Notes: generated by a model not told the origin, from the letters alone. Counted from the first letter of the stretch, positions 10,636-63,383 are shown. The stretch: 64,000 nt of DNA from Acidobacteriota bacterium (GCA_963664705.1 OY761556.1:832001-896000); one strand, 5' to 3'. Numbers and translations are program-made.

Positions 10636-11295
10636 GTGCCAACGGCAGACGAATGGATTGATCAGTTTGAGTTGGCGTTGTTGGCTATGGATTCGATGGA
10701 AGCCCGGCAACTTATTCACAGCGCTGGTGCAATGCTTTCTCCTGTTCAGATCGTGGACAGCATCATTGTGCCTGCGCTTGAGCGCATCGGGGCCAGGTGG
10801 GAACGCGGCGAGGCTGCGCTTTCACAAGTCTATATGAGCGGCCGAATCTGCGAGCCGCTGGTAAGCAATCTCCTGCCCATCGACAGCCACGATCGAAAGG
10901 ATAAACCGATTGTGGGGGTTACCGTCCTGGAAGATTTTCATGTATTGGGAAAAAATCTGGTTCTGTCCGCCCTGCGTGCGAGCGGATTCAATCCGCTCGA
11001 TCTTGGACGAACCGATGTAGGGCAGCTCATCCAGACTGTGATTGCTGAAAATGTGAAGGTGCTGCTCATATCCACCCTCATGCTTCCATCGGCGCTCCGT
11101 GTGCGCGATGTATGCAACGGACTGAAAGCGGCAGGATACCGGGCAAAGATCGCCGTTGGCGGCGCGCCATTTCGCTTTGATCCGGAGTTGTGGCGTGAAG
11201 TAGGCGCCGATGCCGGAGGGCGCAGTGCCGGCGAAGCTATCACGATCACGCGCGAATTGATACAGGCCGTGGAAAGGATGGAGACTACAACGTGA
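10636..11295 (+). CDS. corrinoid (cobalamin)-binding protein, MtaC/MttC-like
   Basis: Cap helices (PALERIGARWERGE), DxHxxG motif EDFHVLGKNLV, STL and VGGAPF motifs. Confidence 0.9.
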   Translation: MPTADEWIDQFELALLAMDSMEARQLIHSAGAMLSPVQIVDSIIVPALERIGARWERGEAALSQVYMSGRICEPLVSNLLPIDSHDRKDKPIVGVTVLEDFHVLGKNLVLSALRASGFNPLDLGRTDVGQLIQTVIAENVKVLLISTLMLPSALRVRDVCNGLKAAGYRAKIAVGGAPFRFDPELWREVGADAGGRSAGEAITITRELIQAVERMETTT

Positions 11296-12356
11296 CTGTG
11301 CCCGCAGCAACAGCGATGGAACGGATCATGATCAGCATGAGTCATCGGGAGCCGGACCGGGTTCCGTTTGTCATCTCGGCCACAATGCTGGGTGCTCGCG
11401 AACTGGGTCTTTCGATAAAAGAGTATTACTCAAGAGCCGAAAACATCGTTGAAGGCCAGTTGCGCATTTTAGCCAAATATCGACATGATGCCCTGATTGC
11501 CAGTTTTTATGGCGCCTTGGAAATAGAAGCCTGGGGAGGAGAAACGATATTTCGCGAAGACGGCCCTCCCAATGCCGGCGCTCCGATCATTTCCCGTCCG
11601 GAGCAGATTGTTGATCTCACGCCCCCGCGAGTTGAGGAATCCCCGCGGCTCACCGAAGCACTTAAGGTTATTCAGCGGCTGAAAGACAAAGTGGGAGATT
11701 CCATCCCGATCATGGGCGCGGTTAATTCCCCGTTTTCTCTTCCCGTCATGCAGATGGGATTTGAAGCTTATCTGAGCCTGATGCATGAACGTCCCGATCT
11801 GTTCAACCGGTTGATGGCAGTGAATGAGGAATTCTGCGTTGCCTGGGCAAATGCACAGATTTTGGCAGGCGCAACGGCCGTCGGCTATGCGGACCCGGTT
11901 TCTTCCCCGACGATTATTCCGCGCGAAATGTATCTTCAAACAGGGTATCAGGTAGCCAGGCGCGTTATCCCCCAGATTAGAGGAGGTGTTGCGACGCATT
12001 TTGCCTCCGGCAACTGTTTGTCCATTCTTGGCGATGTTGCGGAGACGGGCACCATTGCAGTCGGAGTCAGCGCCTTGGAATGCCTGACGGATCTCAAGGC
12101 GGCCTGTCGCGGCCGGTTGGCTGTAATGGGGAATCTCAATGCCATTGCCATGAGACACTGGTCAGCAGAAAAGGCAGTCGATGAGGTGAAAAATGCCATC
12201 GCCGAAGGTGGGCCGGGAGGAGGATATATCCTGTCGGACAACCATGGCGAAATTCCCTGGCAGGTATCCGATGACATTCTGCATGTTATTGCCGATGCTG
12301 TTCATACTTGGGGGTCTTATCCACTAAATTGGATTTCGAAGGAAGCAATGGAATGA
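11292..12356 (+). CDS. uroporphyrinogen decarboxylase-fold protein (MtaA/CmuA methyltransferase-like)
   Basis: ERI...EPDRVP N-terminus, SPFSL, MGNLN, GGYILS...EIP C-terminus; GTGA overlap with corrinoid gene. Confidence 0.85.
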   Translation: MTVPAATAMERIMISMSHREPDRVPFVISATMLGARELGLSIKEYYSRAENIVEGQLRILAKYRHDALIASFYGALEIEAWGGETIFREDGPPNAGAPIISRPEQIVDLTPPRVEESPRLTEALKVIQRLKDKVGDSIPIMGAVNSPFSLPVMQMGFEAYLSLMHERPDLFNRLMAVNEEFCVAWANAQILAGATAVGYADPVSSPTIIPREMYLQTGYQVARRVIPQIRGGVATHFASGNCLSILGDVAETGTIAVGVSALECLTDLKAACRGRLAVMGNLNAIAMRHWSAEKAVDEVKNAIAEGGPGGGYILSDNHGEIPWQVSDDILHVIADAVHTWGSYPLNWISKEAME

Positions 12357-26106: not shown

Positions 26107-26155
26107 GGCCGCCAATCCCGCATGGTTACGGAGTTGGCGGCCTGATTTTTTTTTT
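26107..26155 (+). terminator. rho-independent terminator
   Basis: GGCCGCCAA...TTGGCGGCC stem followed by T10 just after the CoA-transferase stop. Confidence 0.85.
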
Positions 26156-26375: not shown

Positions 26376-27818
26376 ATGAGCTCTGTAAATATTGGCAGAT
26401 TAAAGGAAATAGTCGGAGAAGTGAATGTTCGGGATAACATAGCCGACCTGTATGTCTATGGTTCCGATTCTTCCGTCCACGAAGCAATGCCGAACGCCAT
26501 TGTCCGGCCGCAGAACACTGAACAGGTTCAGGAAATCATGCGGTACGCAAATGGTGAGAAAGTACCAATCATTCCGCGTGGGTCCGGTTCGGGTATGTGC
26601 GGCCAGGTAGTGCCGGTTCAAGGGGGCATTATCCTTGACATGAAGGGCATGAACCGAATCCTCGAAATTAACCCGCAAGATGGCTATTGCCGCGTAGAAC
26701 CGGGAGTCGTTGATGATGATCTGAATAGAGCGCTGAAACCATTCGGCGTATTCTATCCGCCGACCCCGGCGTCCAGCTGCGTGGCAACCATTGCCGGCGA
26801 AATCGCCAATAACGCTTCCGGCGGACGGTCAGTGAAATACGGCGCCGCCCGTGATGCGATCCTCTCCATGAAAGTTGTCATGCCGAATGGCGACCACCTT
26901 TCATTTGGATCCAGCACGCGTGTGGCTGCGTCCGGATATCCGCTGGAACGGCTCATGGTCGGATCGGAAGGAACGCTGGCCGTTATCACGGAAGCCTGCA
27001 TGCGCTTCGTGCCAATACCCAAGCTTCGTTGCCTGGGCATTGCCAAATTCAACCAACTCGGAGAAGCAGGAGATGCGATTTCCGATATCATGGGCAGCGG
27101 TTGCCAGCCTTCCATGTTGGAACTCATCGACAAGGTTGCGATCATCGCCGCGAACAAGGCTGCGAAGCTGGGATTGCCCGAAGTTGAGGCGATTCTTCTT
27201 TTCGAAGCGGACGGAATGACGAAAGACCTGATCGATGCCGAGATGGCCAAGATTCAGAAGATCTGCGAAAAGCATAACTGCTTCGGTATGGAGAGCAGCT
27301 ACGAGGAGAAGGAAAGAACGCGGATTTGGGCCGGACGCGCCAAATTGTTCCCGGCTCTTTCAAAATACGACGATCGCCTTGCCTCCACATCATTGGCTGA
27401 TGATATGGCAGTGCCATTCTCCAAAATGGCGGCAACAGCCGAGAAGATCCATGAAGTGGCCGAGAAACATGGGCTCGTAATGACTGCCTACGGGCACTGT
27501 GGTGCCGGTTGCATGCACACCAAGATATTGATGGATACTGACCGGGAGTTCCAATGGGAAGGCGCCCGGGATGCCGTTGCCGAGATTTATGATTTTGTTC
27601 GCTCGGTTGGCGGTACCACCTCTGCGGAACATGGCATCGGATTGTCCAAAGCCGCAGCGTTCAAGAGGGAAAAGCAACCCAGCCTTGAACTGATGCGTGC
27701 GATCAAGCGCGCGTTTGATCCCAACAATATTTTGAATCCTGGAAAACTCATGGACGGCCCGGACGATTGGGTCGAGGCGACAAATTTGCGGTATCAAGTT
27801 TCGAAGGCGGGAAATTAA
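26376..27818 (+). CDS. FAD-dependent 2-hydroxyacid (probably D-lactate) dehydrogenase, GlcD/LctD/Dld family
   Basis: IPRGSGSG, YPPTPAS, VKYG, GSEGTL, GHCGAGCMH, AEHGIG, FDPNNILNPGK. Confidence 0.88.
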   Translation: MSSVNIGRLKEIVGEVNVRDNIADLYVYGSDSSVHEAMPNAIVRPQNTEQVQEIMRYANGEKVPIIPRGSGSGMCGQVVPVQGGIILDMKGMNRILEINPQDGYCRVEPGVVDDDLNRALKPFGVFYPPTPASSCVATIAGEIANNASGGRSVKYGAARDAILSMKVVMPNGDHLSFGSSTRVAASGYPLERLMVGSEGTLAVITEACMRFVPIPKLRCLGIAKFNQLGEAGDAISDIMGSGCQPSMLELIDKVAIIAANKAAKLGLPEVEAILLFEADGMTKDLIDAEMAKIQKICEKHNCFGMESSYEEKERTRIWAGRAKLFPALSKYDDRLASTSLADDMAVPFSKMAATAEKIHEVAEKHGLVMTAYGHCGAGCMHTKILMDTDREFQWEGARDAVAEIYDFVRSVGGTTSAEHGIGLSKAAAFKREKQPSLELMRAIKRAFDPNNILNPGKLMDGPDDWVEATNLRYQVSKAGN

Positions 27819-28759
27819 TGAGAGACATCACCAAATTAGAAAAATGGAAGCTTGCGCTCAATAAGTGCATCCGTTGCGGTTACTGTTATGAACACTGCCC
27901 GATCTACAAATCCACACGGTGGGAAATTGATAGCCCTCGTGGCAAGCTGATTCTGCTCTACGGAATGCTCAGCGGAGAACTGGAGCCGTCCGATTACATC
28001 GCCACCAAGATTTTTGATTGCTTCCACTGCAACCGCTGCGTGAAGGCCTGTTCTTCCGGCGTGCCGCTACAGGATGTCTATAATGATTCCAGGTCGTTCT
28101 TCCTGGAAGCCGGGTACGACGTCGTCGGAACCACCTCCATGACCAAGCACGAAGATTGTGCGCGCTGTCTGAACTGCGTGCGCATGTGCAAACATGAAGC
28201 CCGGAAGTATGTGGACGGAAAGATTGTCACGGACCGTCTGAAATGCCAGAGCTGCGGCAGCTGTATCGATATCTGCCCGGCGCAGGGTGTCAGCATTCAG
28301 CACGGTTTTGGTACCAATCCGAACGAGCTTCTTGATGAGGTGCAAGCCTACTTCGGGAATCCGGAAAACAAAGATGCCAAGGCTATCGTGTTTTCCTGCG
28401 GATATTCCAGCTATCCGGGGCTTCAGACCGCGCAGTACGACAAGTTCGTGATCAGCAACGAATACAAGATCCTGGTGACCGCGTGCAGCGGACGCCTGAA
28501 ATCGAATACTGTTCTGGAAACAATGGAGCGTGGAGCCTGGGGCGTCCTGATCTGCTGCTGCCCGGAAGATGAATGCGAGCACGGCGGAAGTCCGCGAGTG
28601 AAGGCGCGCATGAAGGCCCTGACAAGCTCTCTCGAGAGACTCGACATCAACCCGAAGCGGCTGCAGGTGGTTGAAGTGCCGCCGGGGAATCCGGGGCAGT
28701 TTACCAACGCTACGAAGGCTTTCATGGAAGATATCCGAAGCATCGGGCCTTTAGTATAA
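27818..28759 (+). CDS. Fe-S chimera: HdrC/GlcF-like 2[4Fe-4S] + ferredoxin 2[4Fe-4S] + MvhD/FlpD [2Fe-2S] domain
   Basis: Four CxxCxxCxxxC motifs, then IVFSC...ACSGR...GVLICCCPEDEC...INPKRL (MvhD); TAATG overlap with upstream gene. Confidence 0.85.
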   Translation: MRDITKLEKWKLALNKCIRCGYCYEHCPIYKSTRWEIDSPRGKLILLYGMLSGELEPSDYIATKIFDCFHCNRCVKACSSGVPLQDVYNDSRSFFLEAGYDVVGTTSMTKHEDCARCLNCVRMCKHEARKYVDGKIVTDRLKCQSCGSCIDICPAQGVSIQHGFGTNPNELLDEVQAYFGNPENKDAKAIVFSCGYSSYPGLQTAQYDKFVISNEYKILVTACSGRLKSNTVLETMERGAWGVLICCCPEDECEHGGSPRVKARMKALTSSLERLDINPKRLQVVEVPPGNPGQFTNATKAFMEDIRSIGPLV

Positions 28760-28769
28760 GGAGTTGCCA

Positions 28770-30044
28770 ATGAAGCTAAGTGTTGCATACGGCAAAGATG
28801 GAAAGCTCGAGGCCGAAATCGACGAAAAGCGTGTTCTTGGGCTCATTGAACCCAATGAAGTCGAGATCGGCGATGAAACGGAAGTCATCCGGCAAGCGTT
28901 GGCGAGTCCCCACGGGTATGAAAGCCTGCGGGAATTCCTGAAGGATGCCCGGGATGTGCTGTTCATTGTGAATGACCCGACGCGGCCGACGCCAACGTCG
29001 CGCGTGCTTCAGTTGATTCAGGATGACATTGCCGGTCACAAGGTCAGTTTTATTGTGGCCACCGGAATCCACCGGAAGCCGACGGATGAAGAATACGTCC
29101 AGATATTCGGCGAGAAGCTTTATGCCAAATACAAGGATTGTATTTTCGTCCATGATGCCAGGAAGAGCGAGGATATGGTCTTCCTCGGAACGTCGAAAAA
29201 CGGCACCGAGATGAAGGTCAACAAGCTGGGCGTCGAAGCGCACAAAATCGTCATCATTACTTCGGTGGAACCCCACTATTTTGCGGGATACACCGGCGGG
29301 CGCAAGTCGTTCCTGCCCGGCATTGCTTCGTATGAAACGATCACGCAGAATCACAAGCTCGCGCTGAAACGTGAAGCCTGTGCGCTCAAGCTCGAGGGCA
29401 ATCCTGTTCATGAGGACATGATTGATGCCCTCAGCACGGTGAAGAAGGAAATTTTTGTAATCAATACGGTTCTGGACAAGAACCATCGTATTTATGCTGC
29501 CGCCGCCGGGGACATCTATAAGTCTTTTGAGGCAGCGGTTGCGAAGGCGAATGATGTATTTGTAGCCAAGATCCCGGAAAAAGCGGATATCGTCGTTTCT
29601 GTCGCTAAATTCCCTTCCGATATCGATCTCTATCAGGCTCAGAAGGGAATCGATAACGCGAAACATGCGTTGAAGGAAGGCGGCATCCTGATTTTGGTTT
29701 CAAAGTGCCGTACAGGCATTGGCGAGGATTCGTTCGTCAAGCTTTTAAGCTCTGCAAGTTCGCCGCAGGATGCTCTGGACCGCATCGAGAAGAAATTCGT
29801 TGTGGGCTACCATAAAGCGGCCAAGATGGCGGAAGTCGGGATTTGGGCACAAACCTGGGGCGTTACGGATCTCGATCCCAAACTGCTTGAAAGCATCTTC
29901 ATCAAGCCCTTTTCTTCGCTGCAGACGGCCCTGGATGCCGCTCTGGCGGAGAAAGGAAAAGATGCCAAAGTCCTGGTGTTGCTCGACGGCAGTCTGACCA
30001 TTCCGTTCGTGCAACAGCAGACAGCCTCAGGCAAGAACGCCTAG
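28770..30044 (+). CDS. larA: nickel-pincer nucleotide-dependent lactate racemase family protein
   Basis: NDPTRPTP, ATGIHR, EPHYFAGYTGGRKS, NH, DLYQAQK; RBS AAGGAG. Confidence 0.88.
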   Translation: MKLSVAYGKDGKLEAEIDEKRVLGLIEPNEVEIGDETEVIRQALASPHGYESLREFLKDARDVLFIVNDPTRPTPTSRVLQLIQDDIAGHKVSFIVATGIHRKPTDEEYVQIFGEKLYAKYKDCIFVHDARKSEDMVFLGTSKNGTEMKVNKLGVEAHKIVIITSVEPHYFAGYTGGRKSFLPGIASYETITQNHKLALKREACALKLEGNPVHEDMIDALSTVKKEIFVINTVLDKNHRIYAAAAGDIYKSFEAAVAKANDVFVAKIPEKADIVVSVAKFPSDIDLYQAQKGIDNAKHALKEGGILILVSKCRTGIGEDSFVKLLSSASSPQDALDRIEKKFVVGYHKAAKMAEVGIWAQTWGVTDLDPKLLESIFIKPFSSLQTALDAALAEKGKDAKVLVLLDGSLTIPFVQQQTASGKNA

Positions 30045-30062
30045 CAAATGGAGGAATAGATA

Positions 30063-30728
30063 ATGATAGTTGGTGATCAGAAACCTATTGAAGACATCCT
30101 GGCATACGTCGATGGTTGCGAACGTATACTGCTGGCAGGTTGCCACGGCTGCGTTACGGTGTGCTGCGCGGGGGGACAGAAGGAAGTGGATGTTCTGGCC
30201 AGCATGATTGAACTGGGCCGGATGAAGCGCCGCCAGCCATGCCAGATTACGAAGATTACGCTGGAACGCCAGTGCGATGTGGAGTTCCTCGAAGAATTGA
30301 TCGCAAAGTCCAAGGAAAACGATGTAATCCTGTCGATGGCTTGTGGCGCAGGCGTTCAGCTGGTAGCCGAAAATGCCGGGACGAAGAAGGTAGTGCCGGC
30401 GCTGAACACAAATTTTATCGGCGCCATTCATGAAAAGGGAGTATGGGGCGAACGGTGTCAGACCTGCGGCGACTGCAAGCTTGCTCTGACCGGCGGTATT
30501 TGTCCCGTCACGCGCTGCTCCAAGAGCCTGATGAACGGCCCCTGCGGCGGATCGCGCGATGGAAAATGCGAAGTGAATTCCGATATTTCCTGCGGCTGGA
30601 ATCTGATCGTGGATCGGCTGGAGGCGACAGGTTGTTTGGACCAATACGAGAATATTCTGGAACCGGCGGACTGGTCGCGCTCCCGTGATGGAGGACCGCG
30701 AAAACTGGTTCGGGAAGACTTAAGGTAG
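30063..30728 (+). CDS. metV: methylene-THF reductase small Fe-S/Zn subunit
   Basis: GCHGCVTVC, ERQCD, MACGAG, ERCQTCGDC...GGICPVTRCSKSLMNGPCGG...CEV...CGW. Confidence 0.9.
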   Translation: MIVGDQKPIEDILAYVDGCERILLAGCHGCVTVCCAGGQKEVDVLASMIELGRMKRRQPCQITKITLERQCDVEFLEELIAKSKENDVILSMACGAGVQLVAENAGTKKVVPALNTNFIGAIHEKGVWGERCQTCGDCKLALTGGICPVTRCSKSLMNGPCGGSRDGKCEVNSDISCGWNLIVDRLEATGCLDQYENILEPADWSRSRDGGPRKLVREDLR

Positions 30729-30752
30729 AGAATGGCTAAAAGAGGAAAAAAC

Positions 30753-31670
30753 ATGAATCCAAGCAAGTCAAACCTGAAGACCGTACTCGAATCGGGCCAA
30801 TTCGCGGTAACCGCCGAAGCGGGGCCGCCGCGCGGAGCCAAGCCTGAAGTCGTGCGCCAGAAGGCCAAGATTCTGAAAGGCTGTGTCGATGCCTGCAACG
30901 TCACCGACAATCAGACCAGCGTTGTTCGTATGTGCAGCCTGGCAGCCTGCAAGATTTTGAGTGATGAGGGCATTGATGCCGTCATGCAGATGGTTTGCCG
31001 TGATCGAAACCGAATCGCGGCTCAGAGTGATATCCTGGGAGCCGCATCGCTCGGGATTTCCAATCTGCTATGCCTTTCCGGAGACCATCAGGTTTTCGGA
31101 GATAACCCGAAAGCCAAGAATGTATTCGATATCGATTCAATCCATCTCCTACAGATCGCCAAGGGAATGCGGGATGACTCCAAATTCGCCGGCGGCAAGG
31201 ATGTGGATGGACCTCCGGATATGTTTATTGGTGCGGCGGCAAATCCGTTCGCGGATCCTTTCAAAATCCAGGTTCCGCGGCTGGCAAAGAAAATTGCGGC
31301 CGGGGCACAGTTTATTCAGACCCAATGCGTTTTCAATCTCGACAAATTTATTGAGTTCATGAGCGGCGCAAGAGATCGTGGACTTGATGAAAAAGCCTAT
31401 ATCCTAGCGGGAATTACGCCGGTCAAGAGCTTGCCCATGATTGAATACATGGCAACGAAGGTGGCCGGGATGGATGTTCCGCAGGCGCTGATTGAACGCA
31501 TCAAAGGCGTCGAGAAAAAGAATCAGAAGAAGGAAGGAATCAAGATCGCGGTGGAAACGATCCAACAGCTCAAGGAAGTCAAAGGCATTCGTGGCGTACA
31601 CATTATGGCCATCGAATGGGAGGACGCTGTTCCTGAGATCGTCGAACAGGCGAATCTGAAAACCAAGTAA
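30753..31670 (+). CDS. metF: methylenetetrahydrofolate reductase (MetVF type)
   Basis: TAEAGPPRG, NVTDNQ, CRDRNRIA, LSGDH, GAQFIQTQ, GVHIMAI; alternative start at 30732. Confidence 0.92.
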   Translation: MNPSKSNLKTVLESGQFAVTAEAGPPRGAKPEVVRQKAKILKGCVDACNVTDNQTSVVRMCSLAACKILSDEGIDAVMQMVCRDRNRIAAQSDILGAASLGISNLLCLSGDHQVFGDNPKAKNVFDIDSIHLLQIAKGMRDDSKFAGGKDVDGPPDMFIGAAANPFADPFKIQVPRLAKKIAAGAQFIQTQCVFNLDKFIEFMSGARDRGLDEKAYILAGITPVKSLPMIEYMATKVAGMDVPQALIERIKGVEKKNQKKEGIKIAVETIQQLKEVKGIRGVHIMAIEWEDAVPEIVEQANLKTK

Positions 31671-31687
31671 ATCCGCACAAATACTCC

Positions 31688-31748
31688 GCGGTGAAAATCG
31701 GGTCCGACCCCGATTTTCACCGCCGCCACAAATCGGGTCCGACCCCGA
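31688..31748. repeat. REP-like palindrome plus partial tandem copy
   Basis: 15-bp perfect stem 31688-31702/31709-31723; AAATCGGGTCCGACCCCGA recurs at 31730-31748. Confidence 0.7.
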
Positions 31749-31907: not shown

Positions 31908-32831
31908 ATGAAAAAAGTCAGCATCATCGGCAGCGGAAATGTGGGAGCGAATACCGCTTTTTTTGTCGCGGAAAATCGGGCCGCATCGGTCGTGCTCGTT
32001 GACGTGAAAGAAGGACTCGCCGCAGGAAAAAGCCTGGATATGCTGGAAGCAGGGCCCATTCGCAGGTATGACACCGACATTCGAGGAGGCGATAGCATTG
32101 AGGCCATCCGCGGCAGCGATATTGTGGTTGTAGCGGCGGGGCGCGTACGTGCTCCGGACCAGAGTCGGGATGATCTGTTTCAGGAAAATTCCAAATTGAT
32201 GTTGCAGATTTGCGAAGACATCATCCGGCTGGCGCCGGATGCCGTGGTTATCAATGTTATGGAACCGGTAGATATGATCACCCTCCTGGCGCAGAAAGCG
32301 CTCGGATTTGATCGTAATAGGGTTCTGGGTGTCGGTGGCCTCCTGAGTTCCATGCGTATGCAATACCTGGTCAGCAATGCGTTGGGAGTCTCTTCGCGCG
32401 AGGCGACCGGAATGGTGATCGGCCCGCACCGGCCGACCATGGTATTTCTGCGCGATACCATCCGGGTTTCCGGGATACCGGTGGACAAGCTGTTGTCGCC
32501 CGAAAAGATCAACACCATCTTGAACGAGGTAAGAAAGGCGGGAGACGATATCCTGCATATGGCTCAGCGCTCCACCGCGTACTATGCCCCCAGCGCGGCT
32601 GTCGCCGGCCTCGTCGAAGCGATTGTCCGCAACAGCAAGGCGCTTCTGCCTGTTTCCGTCCGTTTGCAGGGAGAATACGGAGTTGGCGGGGTTGCGGTCA
32701 GCATCCCCACGCAAATAGGGGAAAACGGCGTCGATAAGATTGTTTCCGTCAGGATGAGTCCTGACGAAAACCGCGAATTTATTGATGCCGTGAATGATTT
32801 GTGCGCCTCACTGTCTCGTGCCAACTGTTAG
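31908..32831 (+). CDS. malate dehydrogenase-like protein with altered active site
   Basis: GSGNVG, AGRVRAPDQSRDDL, AYYAP; but MEP replaces SNP and LSSMR replaces LDSxR. Confidence 0.85.
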   Translation: MKKVSIIGSGNVGANTAFFVAENRAASVVLVDVKEGLAAGKSLDMLEAGPIRRYDTDIRGGDSIEAIRGSDIVVVAAGRVRAPDQSRDDLFQENSKLMLQICEDIIRLAPDAVVINVMEPVDMITLLAQKALGFDRNRVLGVGGLLSSMRMQYLVSNALGVSSREATGMVIGPHRPTMVFLRDTIRVSGIPVDKLLSPEKINTILNEVRKAGDDILHMAQRSTAYYAPSAAVAGLVEAIVRNSKALLPVSVRLQGEYGVGGVAVSIPTQIGENGVDKIVSVRMSPDENREFIDAVNDLCASLSRANC

Positions 32832-32859: not shown

Positions 32860-33804
32860 ATGCCTGGTAAAAAGGTAAGCATTATTGGGGCCGGCAATGT
32901 CGGCGCAACCGCTGCCTATTACATAGCCGAGAAGGTCATTGCAGACATCGTGATGGTGGATGTCATCGAAGGAATGACTCAAGCCAAGGCTCTGGACTTC
33001 CTGCACGCGGGCCCGATGCGACGGTATGATGTGTCCATTCGCGGAACCGGAGATTTTTCGGAAATAGCGGACAGCGATGTGGTGGTGATCACCGCAGGAC
33101 TGCCCCGGAAACCGGGAATGGATCGCATGGACCTTCTCAAGGTAAATGCTGAAATTGTCAAATCTGCATCGCAAAGCATTGCCCGATATGCTCCGAACTC
33201 CACAGTAATCGTTGTTTCCAACCCGCTGGATATTATGTGTCATGTGGCGTTTCGAACAACGGGTTTTGCGGTGCAGCGCGTGGTGGGAATGGCCGGAATC
33301 CTGGATTCAACCCGATTTCGTTACTTTGTTGCCCAGGAACTTGGATGTGCATTTACGGATGTACATGCAATGGTGTTGGGGGGGCATGGAGATCAGATGG
33401 TGCCACTGCCGAGATTTACTACCGTGGCCGGCATCCCGATCACCGATCTTCTTGAAAAGCCGGTCATCGATCGAATGGTGGACCGAACACGCAATGGCGG
33501 AGCGGAAATCGTTTCCCTCCTGAAAACGGGATCTGCCTACTATGCGCCCGCAGCGTCCGTTGCGGAAATGGTGGAAGCCATTATTACTGATCGGAAGACC
33601 CTGGCGCCCTGCGCCTGCTATTTGCGGGGCGAATATGGGATTGAGGGCCTGTTTATTGGAGTGCCCGTGATTCTTGGACGCAACGGTGTCGAGCGTATTG
33701 TGGAACTGGATCTGGAAAAAGAAGAGACGGAACTACTGCAGAAAAGCGCCATGGCTGTTCGCCGTGGCGTGGATGACCTGGCTTCGTTTTTTACAGTGCG
33801 ATGA
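32860..33804 (+). CDS. mdh: LDH-like NAD-dependent malate dehydrogenase
   Basis: GAGNVG, TAGLPRKPGMDR, SNPLD, GILDSTR, GGHGD, LLKTGSAYYAP; RBS AGGAGG. Confidence 0.95.
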   Translation: MPGKKVSIIGAGNVGATAAYYIAEKVIADIVMVDVIEGMTQAKALDFLHAGPMRRYDVSIRGTGDFSEIADSDVVVITAGLPRKPGMDRMDLLKVNAEIVKSASQSIARYAPNSTVIVVSNPLDIMCHVAFRTTGFAVQRVVGMAGILDSTRFRYFVAQELGCAFTDVHAMVLGGHGDQMVPLPRFTTVAGIPITDLLEKPVIDRMVDRTRNGGAEIVSLLKTGSAYYAPAASVAEMVEAIITDRKTLAPCACYLRGEYGIEGLFIGVPVILGRNGVERIVELDLEKEETELLQKSAMAVRRGVDDLASFFTVR

Positions 33805-56803: not shown

Positions 56804-57913
56804 CTAAAAGCCGAGATTGTGGGTCATCAGCAGATCTGCGCATAGTGCATTCAGATTTTTCTGAACGCTGGGGGGGATGCGGATCCCTTCCACCATCGCC
56901 TTTTTCATGCATTCGTACGCCTTTTCTCCCGCGGTATATATTCTGGCGTTGGGGCCGGCATCCGGAGTTCTTTCGTATGCCCTCAATTCCCTCAGAATGC
57001 TTCCGGTCGTATGTTTGAAATTTTCCACCGGGAGGAAATTCGCAATATTGATTGCCATGAAGAAATGGCCGATGCGGGAGGGTTGTTGCTTCCCGTCCTT
57101 ATCGTGATCGTGGAGTTGAGAGAGATAGCACCCATCCTGGAAGGCTGAGGAAAGAATCTCCACTATCGTTGCCAGCCCATATCCTTTATGCCCGCCCATC
57201 AGTTCCCCTTTTCCTCCGAGGGGAAGAAGCGCGGCCTTTCCCCTGTTCATTTGCTCGATCAGCCTGGAGCTGTCGGTTGCGGGCGATCCGTCTTCTTTGA
57301 TCACCCATCCTTCGGGAATTGGTTTTTTGGCGCGGGCGGCAATTTCAATTTTGCCGCGTGGAGCAATCGATGTGGCAGCATCGAATGTAAATGGAAACTC
57401 CTCATCGGTCGGAGCGCTGAATGCGATTGGGTTAGTACCCAACATGGGTTCGACGCCGAAGGTCGGGGCGATGGAAGGATGGGCGTTGGTAAAGCTCATC
57501 CCGACCATGCCTTCGTTGGCCGCCATCCGGGAATAGTAGCCGGCGATTCCGTAGTGGCTCGAATTTCGAACGGCAACTGCCCCCATGCCATATTTGTGGG
57601 CTTTTTCGATGGCCAGTTTCATTGCATTGAACCCGACAACCATTCCCATCCCATTGGCTCCGTCAACAACGGCGGTAGTGAGAGATTCATTTACGATTTT
57701 CCAATGGGTTGTCGGCTGCTGCAGTCCTGACTTGATGCGCTTGTAATACCAGTGAAGATGGGCGATCCCGTGAGAGCGAACGCCCTTCAGGTCGGAGGCG
57801 AGAAGGACATCTGCCGCAATTTCGGCATCGGGGCGGGGAAGCCCCATGCGAGTCATTGCCTCAATCATAAACTCGGTCAGCTTCTTAACGGGTACATAGA
57901 CGGCTTCTGCCAT
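56804..57913 (-). CDS. Ldh_2 family (malate/L-lactate/ureidoglycolate) dehydrogenase
   Basis: GVRSHG, RNSSHYG, GTNPIA, DAATS, GHKGYGL. Confidence 0.92.
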   Translation of the reverse strand: MAEAVYVPVKKLTEFMIEAMTRMGLPRPDAEIAADVLLASDLKGVRSHGIAHLHWYYKRIKSGLQQPTTHWKIVNESLTTAVVDGANGMGMVVGFNAMKLAIEKAHKYGMGAVAVRNSSHYGIAGYYSRMAANEGMVGMSFTNAHPSIAPTFGVEPMLGTNPIAFSAPTDEEFPFTFDAATSIAPRGKIEIAARAKKPIPEGWVIKEDGSPATDSSRLIEQMNRGKAALLPLGGKGELMGGHKGYGLATIVEILSSAFQDGCYLSQLHDHDKDGKQQPSRIGHFFMAINIANFLPVENFKHTTGSILRELRAYERTPDAGPNARIYTAGEKAYECMKKAMVEGIRIPPSVQKNLNALCADLLMTHNLGF

Positions 57914-58010
57914 GGCTGTCTCTCCATTGTTCAAGCCGGATTCCGAGATGGGGGGCAGGGTATTCCGCGCGGAATCCTTCAGTCCGTGTTCAGCATTCAC
58001 ACTCCATTTA

Positions 58011-59393
58011 CTAATCTTGGAACATTTTTCCCGGATTTAGAATATTCAATGGATCCAGCGCCTGTTTGATTTGCCGTTGAACTCCGACAGAAACCGGACC
58101 CAACGCCTGTTCGAAATATGGGCGCTTGAGAACTCCGACACCGTGTTCTCCGGACAGTGTTCCGCCCTGGGCGAGCGCAACTGCGAAGATCTCCTTTACC
58201 ATCTTCTCCACCTTTGCCCACTCTTCCGGCTTGCGCTTATCAAAGAGAATATTGGGATGCAGGTTCCCGTCTCCCGCGTGGCCGAAGATGACGATGGGAA
58301 GCCCGTATCGGGCGCTGATCTCGCGCAGTCGCTGCACGACTTCCGGAATGGCGCTGCGCGGAACTGTGATATCTTCACCCAGCTTATTGGGAGCCTTGCG
58401 GGCGAGCGACGGGGAAATGGAACGTCGGGCCTTCCACAAGCCGGCGCGCTCAGCTTCAGTTTTGGCAACCTTTACCGACCGGGCTCCATTGTCTGTACAG
58501 ATCTCTCCTGCCGCCTCGATTTCACGGATGACCGTCTGCTCATCCGAGCCATCCGTTTCGATAATCAGAGTGGCTTCAACATCGGTCGGCAATCCCAGGT
58601 GCATCGCCTCCTCTATGCAGGATATGGCTGTCTGGTCCATCAGTTCAAGGCTTGCCGGCACTATACCCGCCGCAATGATTGCATTGACGGCCTTGGACGC
58701 ATTTGCGAGAGAGCTGAATTCGCCCAGGGCGGTCTTGGCATATCGGGGCTTGGCGACCAGACGGAGGAGCGCTTCAGTGATGAGCCCAAGAGTCCCTTCG
58801 GATGCCGTAAACAGGGCATTCAGATTATAGCCGGTTACATCTTTGATCGGTTTACCCCCGGTTTTCAGAACACTGCCATTGGCCAGCACCACGGTCAGTC
58901 CCAATACGTAATTGCCTGTGACTCCATACTTCAGACAGCGAGCCCCACCTGCATTGCAGGCAATGTTGCCGCCGATGGTGGAATGGCGGATGCTGGATGG
59001 ATCCGGAGGATAAAAGAATCCCAGTTTTTCGACTTCTGCCTGCAGGTCGGATGTGACCACGCCAGCCTGGGCGCGGATCGTGGAATTGCCGGCATCGATT
59101 TCCAGAATCCTGTTCATTCGTGTGAAGCTGACAATGATGCCGCCGGCGCGAATCGGGATTGAGCCTGCAGCCAGTCCGGACCCCATGCCGCGCGCGATCA
59201 GCGAGGTGCGGGTTTCCGCTGCCAGCTTGACTACTTCCGCTGCCTGTTCCGTCGATTGCGGCAGCACGACCACGTCGGGCAGCCCTTCGGCAAAGGTTCC
59301 ATCATAGCTATACACGGCCAGGTCTTCCGGCGTGCACAGCACGCCATCCTTGCCGGCAATTCCCACCAAACGCTCGATAATTTTACTTTCCAT
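58011..59393 (-). CDS. glcD: FAD-linked 2-hydroxyacid oxidase subunit GlcD
   Basis: YPPDPSS, LKYGVT, KDVTGY, EDITVPR, GHAGDGNLHP, SGEHGVG, LNPGK. Confidence 0.88.
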   Translation of the reverse strand: MESKIIERLVGIAGKDGVLCTPEDLAVYSYDGTFAEGLPDVVVLPQSTEQAAEVVKLAAETRTSLIARGMGSGLAAGSIPIRAGGIIVSFTRMNRILEIDAGNSTIRAQAGVVTSDLQAEVEKLGFFYPPDPSSIRHSTIGGNIACNAGGARCLKYGVTGNYVLGLTVVLANGSVLKTGGKPIKDVTGYNLNALFTASEGTLGLITEALLRLVAKPRYAKTALGEFSSLANASKAVNAIIAAGIVPASLELMDQTAISCIEEAMHLGLPTDVEATLIIETDGSDEQTVIREIEAAGEICTDNGARSVKVAKTEAERAGLWKARRSISPSLARKAPNKLGEDITVPRSAIPEVVQRLREISARYGLPIVIFGHAGDGNLHPNILFDKRKPEEWAKVEKMVKEIFAVALAQGGTLSGEHGVGVLKRPYFEQALGPVSVGVQRQIKQALDPLNILNPGKMFQD

Positions 59394-60654
59394 CCGCACC
59401 CCCGTACGCTTCGTCCAATAAAGTAACCGGGTGTACGACGCGAACCGGCAAGCCGCGCCGCTGCAGTCCCGTGTTGAGCTGCATCTGGCAGCCCGGGCAA
59501 CCGGAGGCAAGAACACGTGCCTCCGTTCCTGCGATATTATCCAGTTTCCTGTTCAGAACTTTCCATGAAGTTTCATAGTGCGTGATCAATTGACTTCCCG
59601 CAGATCCACAGCACCAGTCGGCTTCCGGCATCTCGACAAATTGCAGGCCGTCGATCAGGGACAACAGCTTTCTGGGTTGCTGCCACACTTTCTGGCCCCT
59701 TCGCAAATGACAGGGATCATGGTAGGTGACCTTTGTCTCGAGCCGCCCGGAAGGTTTCTCCAGCGGTATTTCCGAAAGAAATTCGCTGATATCCCGCACC
59801 TTGGATTCAAAGGCTTTTGCCCGGCTTGCCCAATCCGGATCGCCCGAAAGCAGAACGCCATATTCCTTCAGGCTGGATCCACACGTTGCGCAATCTGTAA
59901 CAATCTTGTCCACGTGATAGCGTTCAAAAACAGCGATATTATGCCGGGCCTGTTTTTCCACAAGATCCATGCGGCCATAGCCTCGTGCCGGCATGCCGCA
60001 GCATTCAATCTCCTTCGGGGAAATGACGGTGCAGCCGTTTCGGGCCAGGACACGCAGCGTAGCTGCGCTCTGGTCGGCGAATAATAGACTCTGGGCGCAT
60101 CCGAGAAAGAAACCGATGCGATACCGTTCTTCGCCCCTGGCTTTGGTTACCTCCGGCAGGATGCGCCGCAAAGGGCGCTGCGGGAGCCTCGGGAGCATGG
60201 CTTCGAGATCACGAAGTTTCCCGGGCAGAAGCTTGTTCAGCCCGAGCATGTATACCAGGCGGCGCAGCCCAAGTTTTTCGTAAAGCCGAAGAGGCCAGGT
60301 TGCCATTTCCATCCGACCCGCGTGGGAAACCAGTCCTCCAAAAAGCCACTGTTTCCATTTGGCAGGGCGGATCTGTTCCTGGACGTGACGCATGGAAAGC
60401 GCCAGATCGGCGGGACGAATTCCCACGGGACAGAGATCATTGCAGGCCATGCAATCGAAACAGCCGTACATCTGCTCGATAAGGTTGGGGCTGAGTTCCA
60501 GCTGTCCTTCGAGCCCTTTCCGTGCCAGGGCAACGCGACCGCGCGGAGAGGCTGTTTCCTTTAAATACTCCCGATAGGTCGGACAAACAGCCAGACATAA
60601 CCCGCAGCGAATGCAATTGTGATACGCAGATTCGTCAGGTTTAACCAGGTTCAA
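59383..60654 (-). CDS. glcF: GlcF-like Fe-S subunit with two CCG domains
   Basis: CIRCGLCLAVCP, CFDCMACNDLCP, ECCG, YHDPCHL, WCCGSAG, CPGCQMQ; TTG start after GAGGT. Confidence 0.88.
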   Translation of the reverse strand: MNLVKPDESAYHNCIRCGLCLAVCPTYREYLKETASPRGRVALARKGLEGQLELSPNLIEQMYGCFDCMACNDLCPVGIRPADLALSMRHVQEQIRPAKWKQWLFGGLVSHAGRMEMATWPLRLYEKLGLRRLVYMLGLNKLLPGKLRDLEAMLPRLPQRPLRRILPEVTKARGEERYRIGFFLGCAQSLLFADQSAATLRVLARNGCTVISPKEIECCGMPARGYGRMDLVEKQARHNIAVFERYHVDKIVTDCATCGSSLKEYGVLLSGDPDWASRAKAFESKVRDISEFLSEIPLEKPSGRLETKVTYHDPCHLRRGQKVWQQPRKLLSLIDGLQFVEMPEADWCCGSAGSQLITHYETSWKVLNRKLDNIAGTEARVLASGCPGCQMQLNTGLQRRGLPVRVVHPVTLLDEAYGGADGK

Positions 60655-60704
60655 GGCAATTACCTCATTTAGCGTTGCGGGCTCAATGCTCGCTCGGCCG
60701 GTAT

Positions 60705-61991
60705 TTATTTTGTCACGACCGGAAGCGTCAGAAGCGAATGCGGCACAATCAACACATCGCACGACAAGCCCCTGTCGCGGGCCGCAATCTGAATGGCTTC
60801 GTCCATTGTAGCCGCGGGGATCATTTTACACGCGGCCACAACTTCGGGACACTCACTGCCAACGATGATAATTTTCGTCTGTTCAAGCACCTTGGCAATG
60901 ACGAAAGCGCGCTGCTGGCCGGGAGGGAATCCGTTGGTTCGTCCGTCCTGCAGGATCGATTGAACGTCGGGCATGTCGCGCATTGCCGAAAGGAACCGTT
61001 GCTCGCCGACGCCGCTTCCGGCCCCTTCCTCACAGCGCGCGGGGACGATAAAATATCCACCCGGGCGAAGGACGCAGGTCGGTGCAAAGAAGAGGTAGGA
61101 TGGCGCCCGGCTTGCCTGGTACAGATTGCTGTCCTTTGGAAAACCGACACCGGCAATTGCAATATCGTATTGCCCGGGAATCGGAACTTCATAAACCGAG
61201 CGCGCGAAAGCGACAAGATCCTGGAACGCCTGTTCCGGATGGCCCGCGGCCACCCGCAGCACGCGCTTGTCGTCGTCGAGTACCACATTCAGAATGAATC
61301 GGAGTCCCTCGCGCTGCGCAGCCTCCGTAATGGCTTCATGGAATGGGTTCCCCTCAATCTGTCCAAGCCGTGTTCCCGGATGATCGACAAAGGCGGGGCC
61401 GTGCGAATAGGCAATCAGAGCTTCTCCGGCAGCCCCGACAGCAAGCGTTTTCCTGCCTCCGGAATAGCCGGCATATTGATGCGGTTCGACGATTCCGGTC
61501 GCGATGACAAGGTCCGATTCGACGACGGCACGATGTGCGGAAACGGGAACTCCGCCCTCCGTGGTACCAAGGTCGACCAGGGCGGACGGGTTTTGCGGTT
61601 CATTGTCAATGACGCGATAGCGGGCGACAACCGCCGCTCCCAGTTTGGATATCTTCTCCTCCCGGGTGGAGGCGCGATGCATGCCGATGCCGCAAAGCAA
61701 GGTGATGTTTTCATCTTTGACGCCGGCATCCTGCAGTTCGGACAGGATGGGCGGCACCAGAAGACTGTCGGGGCAGGAACGGGTAATATCCGTGAAAACA
61801 ATGCATACTCGACTATCGGCGTGGGCCAATTTTCTTAGAGGCTGGGATCCGATTGGATGCGCCAGTGCGTCCAGTACGGCTTTTTCCTCATTTGCAACAG
61901 GAGGAACGGGTCTGGATACGGCCTGACTGACGCGCATTTCCGAAGGAAGCGAGAACTCCATCGTCGTTTTTCCATACGGCACCTTGTACAT
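60705..61991 (-). CDS. larA: LarA-family nickel-pincer 2-hydroxyacid racemase/epimerase
   Basis: TDITR, GIGMHR, EPHQYAGYSGGRK, SH, LYQASRA. Confidence 0.85.
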   Translation of the reverse strand: MYKVPYGKTTMEFSLPSEMRVSQAVSRPVPPVANEEKAVLDALAHPIGSQPLRKLAHADSRVCIVFTDITRSCPDSLLVPPILSELQDAGVKDENITLLCGIGMHRASTREEKISKLGAAVVARYRVIDNEPQNPSALVDLGTTEGGVPVSAHRAVVESDLVIATGIVEPHQYAGYSGGRKTLAVGAAGEALIAYSHGPAFVDHPGTRLGQIEGNPFHEAITEAAQREGLRFILNVVLDDDKRVLRVAAGHPEQAFQDLVAFARSVYEVPIPGQYDIAIAGVGFPKDSNLYQASRAPSYLFFAPTCVLRPGGYFIVPARCEEGAGSGVGEQRFLSAMRDMPDVQSILQDGRTNGFPPGQQRAFVIAKVLEQTKIIIVGSECPEVVAACKMIPAATMDEAIQIAARDRGLSCDVLIVPHSLLTLPVVTK

Positions 61992-62288: not shown

Positions 62289-63383
62289 ATGAAGGAAGGG
62301 AATATCAGTTATCAGGAGCTATCATCTTATACGCAGCAGGTCCTCGAAAAGCTGGGCTATCCGAAGGAGCAGGCAGAGGTAACCGCATGGACCCTCGTCG
62401 AAGCGGATGCGCGCGGTGTTCCTTCTCACGGGGTAGGTCGGCTTCCTTTCTATGAATCCAATATCAAGTCAAAGTTCGTCTTTCCGGAGGCGAAGCTGGA
62501 AGTTGTGCATGAGACTCCGTTGTCTCTGACCGTGGATGGGCACAATGGCATTGGACCGTATCTTGCCAAGTATACGATGAACCAGGCGATTGAGAAGGCG
62601 AAGAAAGTCGGAGCGGGTTTTGGCGCCCTGCGGAATTCGAGCCATTTCGGAATGGCGGCATTGTGGGCTGAAATGGCCACCAATGAGGGTTTCATCGGCA
62701 TGTCTTTTACCAACACAAGAATCTGTTCGGTTGTTACCTACGGGAAGGAACGCATTCTGGGAACAAACCCGATCTGCTTTGCGATCCCTTCTGCCGGAAA
62801 AGTACCGTTTATTCTGGATATGGCGACCACCACAACGGCGCATGGCAAAGTAGAAGTGTATGAACGCCGCAACAAGCCGATGCCTTTGGGTTGGGTCGTA
62901 GATGAAAATGGAAATGACACGAGCGATACGATTGAATTCCAGAAGCTGTATCGCAGCACGAACCCGAATGGCGGCCATTTGTTCCTCGGCGGTGCCGGGG
63001 AAGAGTTGGGCGGACACAAGGGTTATGGTCTTGGACTTTTCGTAGATCTTCTCTGCGCCGGTATGTCCATGGGTGCGTGGAGCAAAGAGACCTTCAGCAA
63101 AACCAATGGCTGCTGCGTGGCCAGCTTCTTCGCCGCGATCCGCACCGATCTTTTTGGGAATGCAAAGGACATTGCCGACCATGTCGAATCGATTCTGGAA
63201 GGCGTCCGCACCAGCAACAAGGCAGCAGGGCATGACAGGATTTACGTCCATGGCGAAAAGGAAATTGAAAAGCGCGCGGAATCCATGGTCGACGGAGTAA
63301 GCTTGGAGGATACCGAATGGAAGATGCTTGCCGGCTATGCCGAGAGATTCGGCTTTAAGAAGCTGGAGCCATGCAAGGCTTAG
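62289..63383 (+). CDS. Ldh_2 family (malate/L-lactate/ureidoglycolate) dehydrogenase
   Basis: GVPSHG, RNSSHFG, GTNPIC, LDMAT, GHKGYGL; RBS GGAGGA. Confidence 0.92.
   Translation: MKEGNISYQELSSYTQQVLEKLGYPKEQAEVTAWTLVEADARGVPSHGVGRLPFYESNIKSKFVFPEAKLEVVHETPLSLTVDGHNGIGPYLAKYTMNQAIEKAKKVGAGFGALRNSSHFGMAALWAEMATNEGFIGMSFTNTRICSVVTYGKERILGTNPICFAIPSAGKVPFILDMATTTTAHGKVEVYERRNKPMPLGWVVDENGNDTSDTIEFQKLYRSTNPNGGHLFLGGAGEELGGHKGYGLGLFVDLLCAGMSMGAWSKETFSKTNGCCVASFFAAIRTDLFGNAKDIADHVESILEGVRTSNKAAGHDRIYVHGEKEIEKRAESMVDGVSLEDTEWKMLAGYAERFGFKKLEPCKA

Follow-up and report, generated by a model that had tools for sequence, protein, structure and literature searches.

What redox partner serves a methylene-tetrahydrofolate (methylene-THF) reductase of the MetVF kind when its genes share an operon with a hydroxyacid dehydrogenase and a racemase? 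This question is raised by five genes at 26376-31670 of OY761556.1:832001-896000 (GCA_963664705.1), a stretch of 64,000 nucleotides (nt; hereafter the window) from an Acidobacteriota bacterium whose genome (G000) is a single contig of 6.89 Mb and 98% complete. All five open reading frames lie on the + strand and are annotated as an FAD- and metal-dependent D-2-hydroxyacid dehydrogenase (26376-27818, 480 amino acids), an iron-sulfur chimera (27818-28759, 313 amino acids), a LarA-superfamily nickel-pincer racemase (28770-30044, 424 amino acids), MetV, the iron-sulfur subunit of methylene-THF reductase (30063-30728, 221 amino acids), and MetF, its flavin subunit (30732 or 30753 to 31670). Their coordinates bear out the tight co-oriented layout described in an earlier note on this DNA, with a 1-nt overlap (TAATG) between genes 1 and 2 followed by spacers of 10, 18 and either 3 or 24 nt, and their GC contents (0.52-0.56) match that of the genome (0.53).

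The earlier note took the operon for a lactate:methylene-THF oxidoreductase. We read it as a candidate reversible, NAD-independent D-malate/oxaloacetate:methylene/methyl-THF oxidoreductase that would work without HdrA, a reading drawn from sequence and synteny to which we give slightly less than an even chance. In the proposed enzyme, the racemase would interconvert L- and D-malate, the flavoprotein would exchange hydride between D-malate/oxaloacetate and FAD, and the GlcF-type domain of the chimera would dock it onto the flavoprotein. The ferredoxin and MvhD clusters of the chimera would form the socket that in Hdr complexes takes MvhAG, FdhAB or ElpAB; MetV would plug into this socket and MetF would turn over the folate, so that the dehydrogenase would take over the part that HdrA or RnfC2 plays as electron partner of MetVF. 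Such an enzyme would work like a type IV methylene-THF reductase (MTHFR) with its HdrA flavin core replaced, and it falls outside the definitions of type III and type IV MTHFR, LctBCD and lactate racemase. Our literature search, with supplements and most subscription journals lying outside it, found no description of the dehydrogenase-chimera-racemase-MetVF combination, and the parts used of PMC2702500, PMC5109826 and the UBA6911 preprint make no mention of it.

The chimera and its proposed coupling to MetV and MetF

The second gene product joins a GlcF-type N-terminal dicluster (Fer4_8, residues 14-82), a ferredoxin dicluster like that at the C-terminus of HdrA (Fer4, 111-156) and an FlpD/MvhD domain (190-310), and is predicted to carry four [4Fe-4S] clusters and one [2Fe-2S] cluster. 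The stretch 104-311 resembles the C-terminal part of HdrA2, an HdrA-MvhD fusion (profile independent E-value 1.7e-37), and when the family profile was compared with the G000 proteins, positions 1-96 resembled the GlcF paralogues, 91-168 the extreme C-termini of HdrA, and 185-313 MvhD. Twenty cysteines are invariant in the 46 aligned homologues, including C194, C223, C248 and C253 of the MvhD domain. The structure model (predicted local distance difference test, pLDDT, 89; predicted template-modelling score, pTM, 0.84) finds its best fold matches among MvhD and ElpC chains (5odc_D, an MvhD, root-mean-square deviation 2.6), and the family comprises 154 clusters at E ≤1e-20 among 776 candidates. 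The CCG domains expected of a GlcDEF-type GlcF were not found in the chimera.

In solved Hdr complexes, according to the part of PMC12350162 drawn on here (the papers below are likewise cited for the parts used), electrons pass from the partner clusters through the HA1/2 clusters of HdrA to an MvhD-type [2Fe-2S] cluster, and MvhAG, FdhAB and ElpAB are interchangeable partners. Because an HA1/2-type ferredoxin and MvhD carry the electrons of the partner there, the chimera may be regarded as the Hdr-complex socket freed from HdrA: it shares the ferredoxin-plus-MvhD arrangement of MvhAGD-, FdhAB-MvhD- and ElpABC-HdrABC (5odc, 7bkb, 8rvu; PMC12350162) and differs from them in that the socket is no longer part of HdrA but is joined to a GlcF-type domain.

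MetV was assigned by PF12225 (DUF5981) and its invariant cysteines, with no solved structural relative found, and MetF by PF02219 (147 bits); the Glu, Asp and Gln motifs of MetF are present and presumably have the catalytic role known from E. coli MetF. The nearest described system is the type IV HdrCBA-MvhD-MetVF of Moorella thermoacetica and Sporomusa ovata (PMC8760232, PMC9430772), in which MvhD and an HdrA-type ferredoxin likewise precede a MetVF without an NADH site, and MvhD of S. ovata pulls down MetF (PMC9430772). Here MetV, MetF and the MvhD [2Fe-2S] ligands are all in place, whereas the operon lacks hdrC, hdrB and the HdrA flavin core, has a hydroxyacid dehydrogenase and a racemase in their stead, and carries MvhD and ferredoxin fused to a GlcF-type domain. 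With the type III RnfC2-MetVF of Acetobacterium woodii (PMC8760232) it shares a dedicated, apparently non-bifurcating redox module on MetVF; the donor would be an organic acid rather than NADH, and G000 has no RnfC above cut-off. The earlier note's statement that the window holds no HdrA/B, RnfC2 or EtfAB gene stood for HdrA and EtfAB, and for RnfC in that matches stay below cut-off genome-wide; HdrB was given no dedicated search.

The synteny of the first three genes is nearly constant, whereas that of metVF, which the earlier note had included in the set, varies. Counts refer to the 80 best of the 357 chimera loci from species genomes and, separately, to the 80 best of the 396 from metagenomes. 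The dehydrogenase lies upstream of the chimera in 78 of the 78 genome loci with room for it and the racemase downstream in 77/79 (metagenome loci: 67/69 and 62/65). metV was found within 10 kb of the chimera in 44/80 genome loci, directly downstream in 24 (from Acidobacteriota, Myxococcota, one Pirellulaceae, one Syntrophorhabdaceae and two Proteobacteria), upstream and co-oriented in 7, and on the opposite strand in 13; metF alone occurs in 1 locus, and one (L024) has metV without adjacent metF. A MetF tree was built from 37 sequences, 34 of them from loci and the others that of the window and two G000 paralogues, with truncated or mis-called MetF omitted; in it the upstream and opposite-strand copies of Desulfobacteraceae group together (100/100), separately from the downstream copies, pointing to a second recruitment. 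The chimera was found in 23/29 sampled genomes of the host genus and in 0/31 other relatives sampled, and the closest relatives of the host chimera come from Acidobacteriota metagenome-assembled genomes (MAGs). Since the module is common, with its 357 species-genome loci, and occurs in the cultured strains Desulfocicer vacuolatum DSM 3385 (two copies) and Desulfamplus magnetovallimortis, it is directly testable.

Two proteobacterial MAGs, G008 and G011, offer minimal cases. Their loci (L023 and L027, respectively) consist of dehydrogenase, chimera, metV and metF without a racemase, the last three genes being directly adjacent. Each genome encodes one MetV, the chimera as its sole MvhD, and a separate canonical MetF, and searches returned no match to the HdrA query, no AcsB and no LarC. 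The racemase and LarC have thus been lost while metVF stays, as direct wiring of the dehydrogenase through the chimera to MetV/MetF predicts. The idea that the operon merely substitutes for a housekeeping MetF is weakened by the canonical MetF of both MAGs; G000 itself lacks a canonical MetF, and a MetVF could serve methionine synthesis there.

Several observations weigh against this wiring. No metV is nearby in 24/80 genome loci, 9 of which have the full 20 kb (11 further loci are too short), and just 17/80 metagenome loci have it, 35 being too short and 28 without. MetV was detected in 50/50 locus genomes searched (AcsB in 36/50), a figure that has no background control and comes from lineages in which MetV is often multi-copy. 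Residue and synteny counts are not independent, because the homologues are related. G008 (3.1 Mb) and G011 (2.2 Mb) are MAGs of unstated completeness, and the chimera was found in 0/150 other sampled genomes of the family of G008, where further HdrA-free examples were sought. The host possesses four HdrA proteins along with six MvhD domains, which leaves room for a partner encoded elsewhere, together with a single etfAB outside the operon (C1:2.407 Mb) and a complete canonical hdrC-hdrB-hdrA-mvhD-metV-metF cluster (C1:42913-51177). The earlier note's suggestion of a chain without HdrA, Etf or Rnf draws support from domain architecture, synteny and the two MAGs in which no HdrA was found, and loses some to the four HdrA of the host.

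These genes give weight to an explanation that we consider unlikely, if well short of negligible: the dehydrogenase and chimera would be a D-malate input arm of an HdrA encoded elsewhere, with MvhD facing a bifurcating FAD as in methanogens, malate oxidation confurcated with ferredoxin, and metVF lying nearby as part of the same supercomplex or pathway. MvhD [2Fe-2S] clusters do hand electrons to the FAD of HdrA in solved complexes (PMC12350162), 16/80 genome loci have an HdrA-like gene at most 10 kb away (7/80 have etfA), and the 24 loci without metV are consistent with such an arm. In the 13 opposite-strand loci, metV-metF is followed in one operon by a split HdrA ending in MvhD. The chimera, however, brings its own HdrA-type C-terminal ferredoxin; since at least three of the four HdrA of G000 keep the ferredoxin that the chimera duplicates, no free slot is evident. 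HdrA was also not found in G008 and G011, and 6 of the 7 upstream co-oriented loci showed no hdr gene up to 10 kb away.

The substrate of the dehydrogenase and the racemase

The flavoprotein (FAD_binding_4 and FAD-oxidase_C in Pfam) belongs to the GlcD/LctD/D2HGDH subfamily and is likely, from the residues of its pocket, a D-malate dehydrogenase. Its top PDB match is LctD of A. woodii (7qh2, 246 bits), an assignment to GlcD fails (381 bits against a cut-off of 567.9), and the metal and catalytic residues R321, H374, H381, E418 and H419 are kept. Of 122 homologues, 121 have Y372 and K383 in the side-chain pocket and the remaining one has an X, and this pair occurs in 0/3 aligned dehydrogenase paralogues of G000. 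Through spacing from conserved Arg and His residues, rather than a direct alignment to 6lpn, pocket positions were mapped onto human D2HGDH: Y372 falls at Tyr432 and K383 at Asn443, F325 replaces Thr390, and A341 apparently stands at Lys401, a mapping that is uncertain. Only the Tyr of the distal-carboxylate site T390, K401, Y432 and N443 is therefore retained, and the Phe at Thr390 together with the probable Ala at Lys401 argues that the flavoprotein is not a D2HGDH; the lack of equivalents of Thr390 and, apparently, Lys401 also weighs against the malate reading. In the parts of PMC7801405 and PMC10589216 drawn on, the residue two places before the first metal His is Tyr in D2HGDH, two places past the second mouse LDHD has Ile where D2HGDH has Asn, and D-lactate dehydrogenases and GlcD have small or hydrophobic residues at these pocket positions. 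The hydrophobic pocket of LctD-type lactate enzymes is thus not seen here, and a Lys closer to the reactive carbon would fit a four-carbon diacid.

LctBCD of A. woodii (7qh2) has a flavoprotein of the same subfamily with the same metal and catalytic residues, and we take its lct operon to have a racemase companion as here; unlike it, this operon has no EtfAB and instead an iron-sulfur/MvhD partner and a polar, Lys-bearing pocket. D2HGDH hands its electrons to the electron-transferring flavoprotein ETF. Human D2HGDH (6lpn; PMC7801405) shares FAD/Zn D-2-hydroxyacid chemistry, acceptance of D-malate and the equivalent of Tyr432, and differs in Thr390 to Phe, Asn443 to Lys, Lys401 to apparently Ala, and in having no iron-sulfur chimera as partner.

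The racemase (Lar_N and LarA_C) supports the same direction. Its top PDB match is Mar2 (6d6z, 249 bits), ahead of LarA proteins at 207 and 176 bits (176 for L. plantarum LarA, 5huq), and LarAH6, the malate racemase family, is its best LarA family (399.1 bits), ahead of the lactate racemase model NF033504 (308.6 bits). Both scores stay under the family cut-offs of 500 and 460, respectively, and the shortfall for LarAH6 tells against a malate assignment. According to PMC11770544, lactate racemases carry the signature F-F-W-E/Q and 2-hydroxyglutarate racemases Y-F-H/Q-T, and malate racemases are marked by H/Q plus K. Among 119 near full-length homologues of >50% identity from the collected loci, the nickel-pincer and catalytic residues D69, R72, H101, H169, K179 and H195 as well as Y170-F171 are present in 119/119, and H348-K349, which sit at the W358/T359 signature positions in an alignment to LarA1, in 117/119, giving a Y-F-H-K signature; F-F-W-E/Q was found in 0/119. 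The gene name larA given in the earlier note thus holds at superfamily level and no further. Mar2/LarAH6 (6d6z; PMC7583248, PMC11770544) has the nickel pincer, catalytic residues and H-K signature in common with this protein, differing in Y-K rather than Y-F after the catalytic His and in the family cut-off that the latter does not reach. FAD-dehydrogenase genes often adjoin LarA homologues (PMC7583248).

Genes serving malate or oxaloacetate adjoin the operon in the window (two of the malate dehydrogenase family, citrate synthase and phosphoenolpyruvate carboxykinase) and recur elsewhere: malic enzyme in 4/80 and PycB/OadA in 5/80 genome loci, from two lineages, both flanking the module in Desulfobacteraceae and, separately, in one Syntrophorhabdaceae MAG. 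Taken with the residue patterns, the substrate is probably malate and not lactate. A distinctly unlikely variant keeps the proposed wiring and exchanges malate for another dicarboxylic D-2-hydroxyacid, tartrate or D-2-hydroxyglutarate. Consistent with it are the score below the LarAH6 cut-off and the racemase-free loci L023 and L027, which have a SerA-like D-2-hydroxyacid dehydrogenase within 6 kb of metF. SerA makes D-2-hydroxyglutarate. Malate racemases also epimerise tartrate (PMC11770544); 2-hydroxyglutarate racemases, on the other hand, have Thr rather than Lys at the last signature position (PMC11770544), with F325 in place of Thr390 the pocket is expected to be shorter, and the recurring neighbours are malate/oxaloacetate genes.

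The window contains a second racemase-glcF-glcD unit at 58011-61991 on the - strand, whose racemase has Q-R at the signature positions and whose GlcF is a normal CCG-bearing one (59383-60762; no other of the 22 scanned window proteins is a CCG protein). Two Ldh_2-family genes (56804-58000 and 62289-63383) border this unit.

Energetics, direction and host metabolism

A decidedly improbable explanation, in which coupling would be metabolic and not physical, has the chimera reduce a soluble carrier (ferredoxin, flavodoxin or a lipoyl protein) while MetVF acts as a separate type II enzyme. Purified MetVF takes reduced ferredoxin, and the cited parts of PMC9430772 and PMC8760232 report no stable co-purification with Hdr/MvhD; the three-gene unit, moreover, is often without metVF. 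Ferredoxin at about −450 mV (PMC9430772) is nevertheless beyond the reach of malate without bifurcation, and the 30 neighbour clusters that were annotated include no recurring carrier gene. A lactate:methylene-THF oxidoreductase with LarA admitting L-lactate is very improbable, for although LctD is the closest structure and the couples would lie closer (about +2 kJ/mol), the lactate signature is absent from all 119 racemase homologues (Y at 170, H-K in 117), polar and charged residues line the pocket of the dehydrogenase, and no lactate permease recurs among the same clusters.

The oxaloacetate/malate couple lies at about −170 mV. Set against −200 mV for methylene/methyl-THF (PMC8760232), the couples are about 30 mV apart and methyl-THF + oxaloacetate → methylene-THF + malate is computed to yield −5.8 kJ/mol, whereas methyl-THF oxidation with NAD+ costs +23 kJ/mol (PMC9430772). 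In G000 the catabolic direction is likely methyl-THF + oxaloacetate → methylene-THF + malate, sidestepping the +23 kJ/mol step. The oxidative direction is favoured because G000 has no acetyl-CoA synthase (ACS) yet has corrinoid methyltransferase clusters, FolD and Fhs, and, since without ACS methyl-THF formation has methionine as its only sink, oxaloacetate would serve as the acceptor for methyl oxidation. A biosynthetic role in the opposite direction is possible; in G008 and G011 the reaction probably runs in reverse, because no stand-alone methyltransferase was found there, a point against the proposed reading.

The gene content of the host was searched accordingly. G000 encodes Fhs, FolD, the pyruvate:ferredoxin oxidoreductase PFOR, malic enzyme, malate:quinone oxidoreductase, LarC and three RACo activators, as well as two stand-alone pterin-binding methyltransferases beside corrinoid and MtaA-family proteins; searches returned no AcsB, no full corrinoid iron-sulfur protein (CFeSP), no DsrA, no OadB and no RnfC above cut-off. 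A Wood-Ljungdahl acetogen or a sulfate reducer as host was rejected on the absent AcsB, full CFeSP, DsrA and RnfC, and the earlier note's query about the Wood-Ljungdahl pathway is answered by the lack of a carbonyl branch, AcsB not being found in a 98% complete single contig. MttB-type methylamine/betaine methyltransferases were detected in 1/13 ACS-less genomes, and not in G000. RACo/AcsV-like activator genes, usually two, are divergent from the module in 26/80 genome loci (including L041, L043 and L045), which ties the module to corrinoid methyl chemistry.

A bolder extension, which we consider quite unlikely, is that of a fifth MTHFR type partnered by oxaloacetate/D-malate, which in some hosts would close an energy-coupling loop. 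In the Desulfobacteraceae loci L057, L064 and L080, the module is co-oriented with a Na+-pumping decarboxylase beta subunit, malic enzyme and PFOR. NAD(P)H, pyruvate and CO2 would there give L-malate, then D-malate and oxaloacetate, with two electrons passing to methylene-THF; decarboxylation of oxaloacetate would pump Na+, and the sum would be NAD(P)H + methylene-THF → methyl-THF (−23 kJ/mol) with ion export. Because G000 has no OadB match, this loop does not apply to it. Operated in reverse, it would let an ion gradient power the oxidation of methyl-THF by NAD(P)+, the difficult reaction of a Wood-Ljungdahl pathway running backwards. Both the physiological redox partner of MetVF and the way in which anaerobes oxidize methyl-THF over +23 kJ/mol are described as open questions (PMC8760232, PMC9430772); soluble coupling to malate/oxaloacetate, if true, would answer them in a new way, and an MTHFR type based on an organic acid would join the four described so far. 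The dehydrogenase and chimera would then be a general malate plug for MvhD partners, and nickel malate racemases, the largest LarA-superfamily group, would gain a role in energy metabolism.

Other MetVF and Hdr units of G000 were also noted. Both other stand-alone metV genes follow an mvhD, just as that of the window follows the chimera with the racemase between. G000:C1:79949-93065 (L002, L003) holds a divergent mvhD and metF followed by two proteins with the flavin mononucleotide (FMN) domain of glutamate synthase, then an HdrA of 1503 amino acids, mvhD and metV, a further uncommon way of wiring MetVF. G000:C1:4022602-4024581 (L005) encodes a 659-residue MetF-MetV fusion with a divergent MetF domain, a C-terminal MetV and an N-terminal region without assignment. 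At G000:C1:1147146-1159606 (L171), malate:quinone oxidoreductase adjoins a corrinoid methyltransferase cluster (MeTr, corrinoid protein, three MtaA-family proteins, RACo), so that malate and methyl-group genes lie side by side a second time. We take G000:C1:3809833-3831016 (L004; AOR-like protein, HdrA, selenocysteine MvhD and NuoEFG-like proteins) to resemble a class II benzoyl-CoA reductase cluster.

Operon boundaries and flanking genes

The hairpins that the earlier note had placed at both ends of the operon are real, each being more stable than 200/200 shuffles. The upstream one (26107-26142), with a T run extending to 26155 on the + strand, is terminator-like (fold z −3.9) and closes the upstream CoA-transferase gene. 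The downstream one is a 15-bp hairpin on the + strand (31688-31723, z −5.8) without a T tail, so that the 3′ end of the transcript is uncertain; it is possibly an mRNA 3′ stabiliser or a factor-dependent stop. A consensus terminator scan listed neither, and promoter-like sites were rarer than chance (3 found against 7.0 expected). A REP-like repeat was rejected for the downstream hairpin, whose core occurs in the genome, at ≤1 mismatch, only here and 35 nt downstream.

Upstream of the operon the window carries CoA-transferase and carboxyltransferase genes, and downstream a malate dehydrogenase (MDH)-like gene, MDH, citrate synthase and the phosphoenolpyruvate carboxykinase PEPCK. The MDH-like paralogue (31908-32831, +) lies directly 5′ of the intact MDH (32860-33804), a pair that recurs in L090; Ser replaces the catalytic Asp of the intact copy and the His motif is altered, with both substrate Arg residues retained, so the protein is possibly a non-catalytic subunit or a malate sensor. 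At 10636-12356 (+), a corrinoid protein and an MtaA/URO-D-family gene lie within a two-component signalling cluster.

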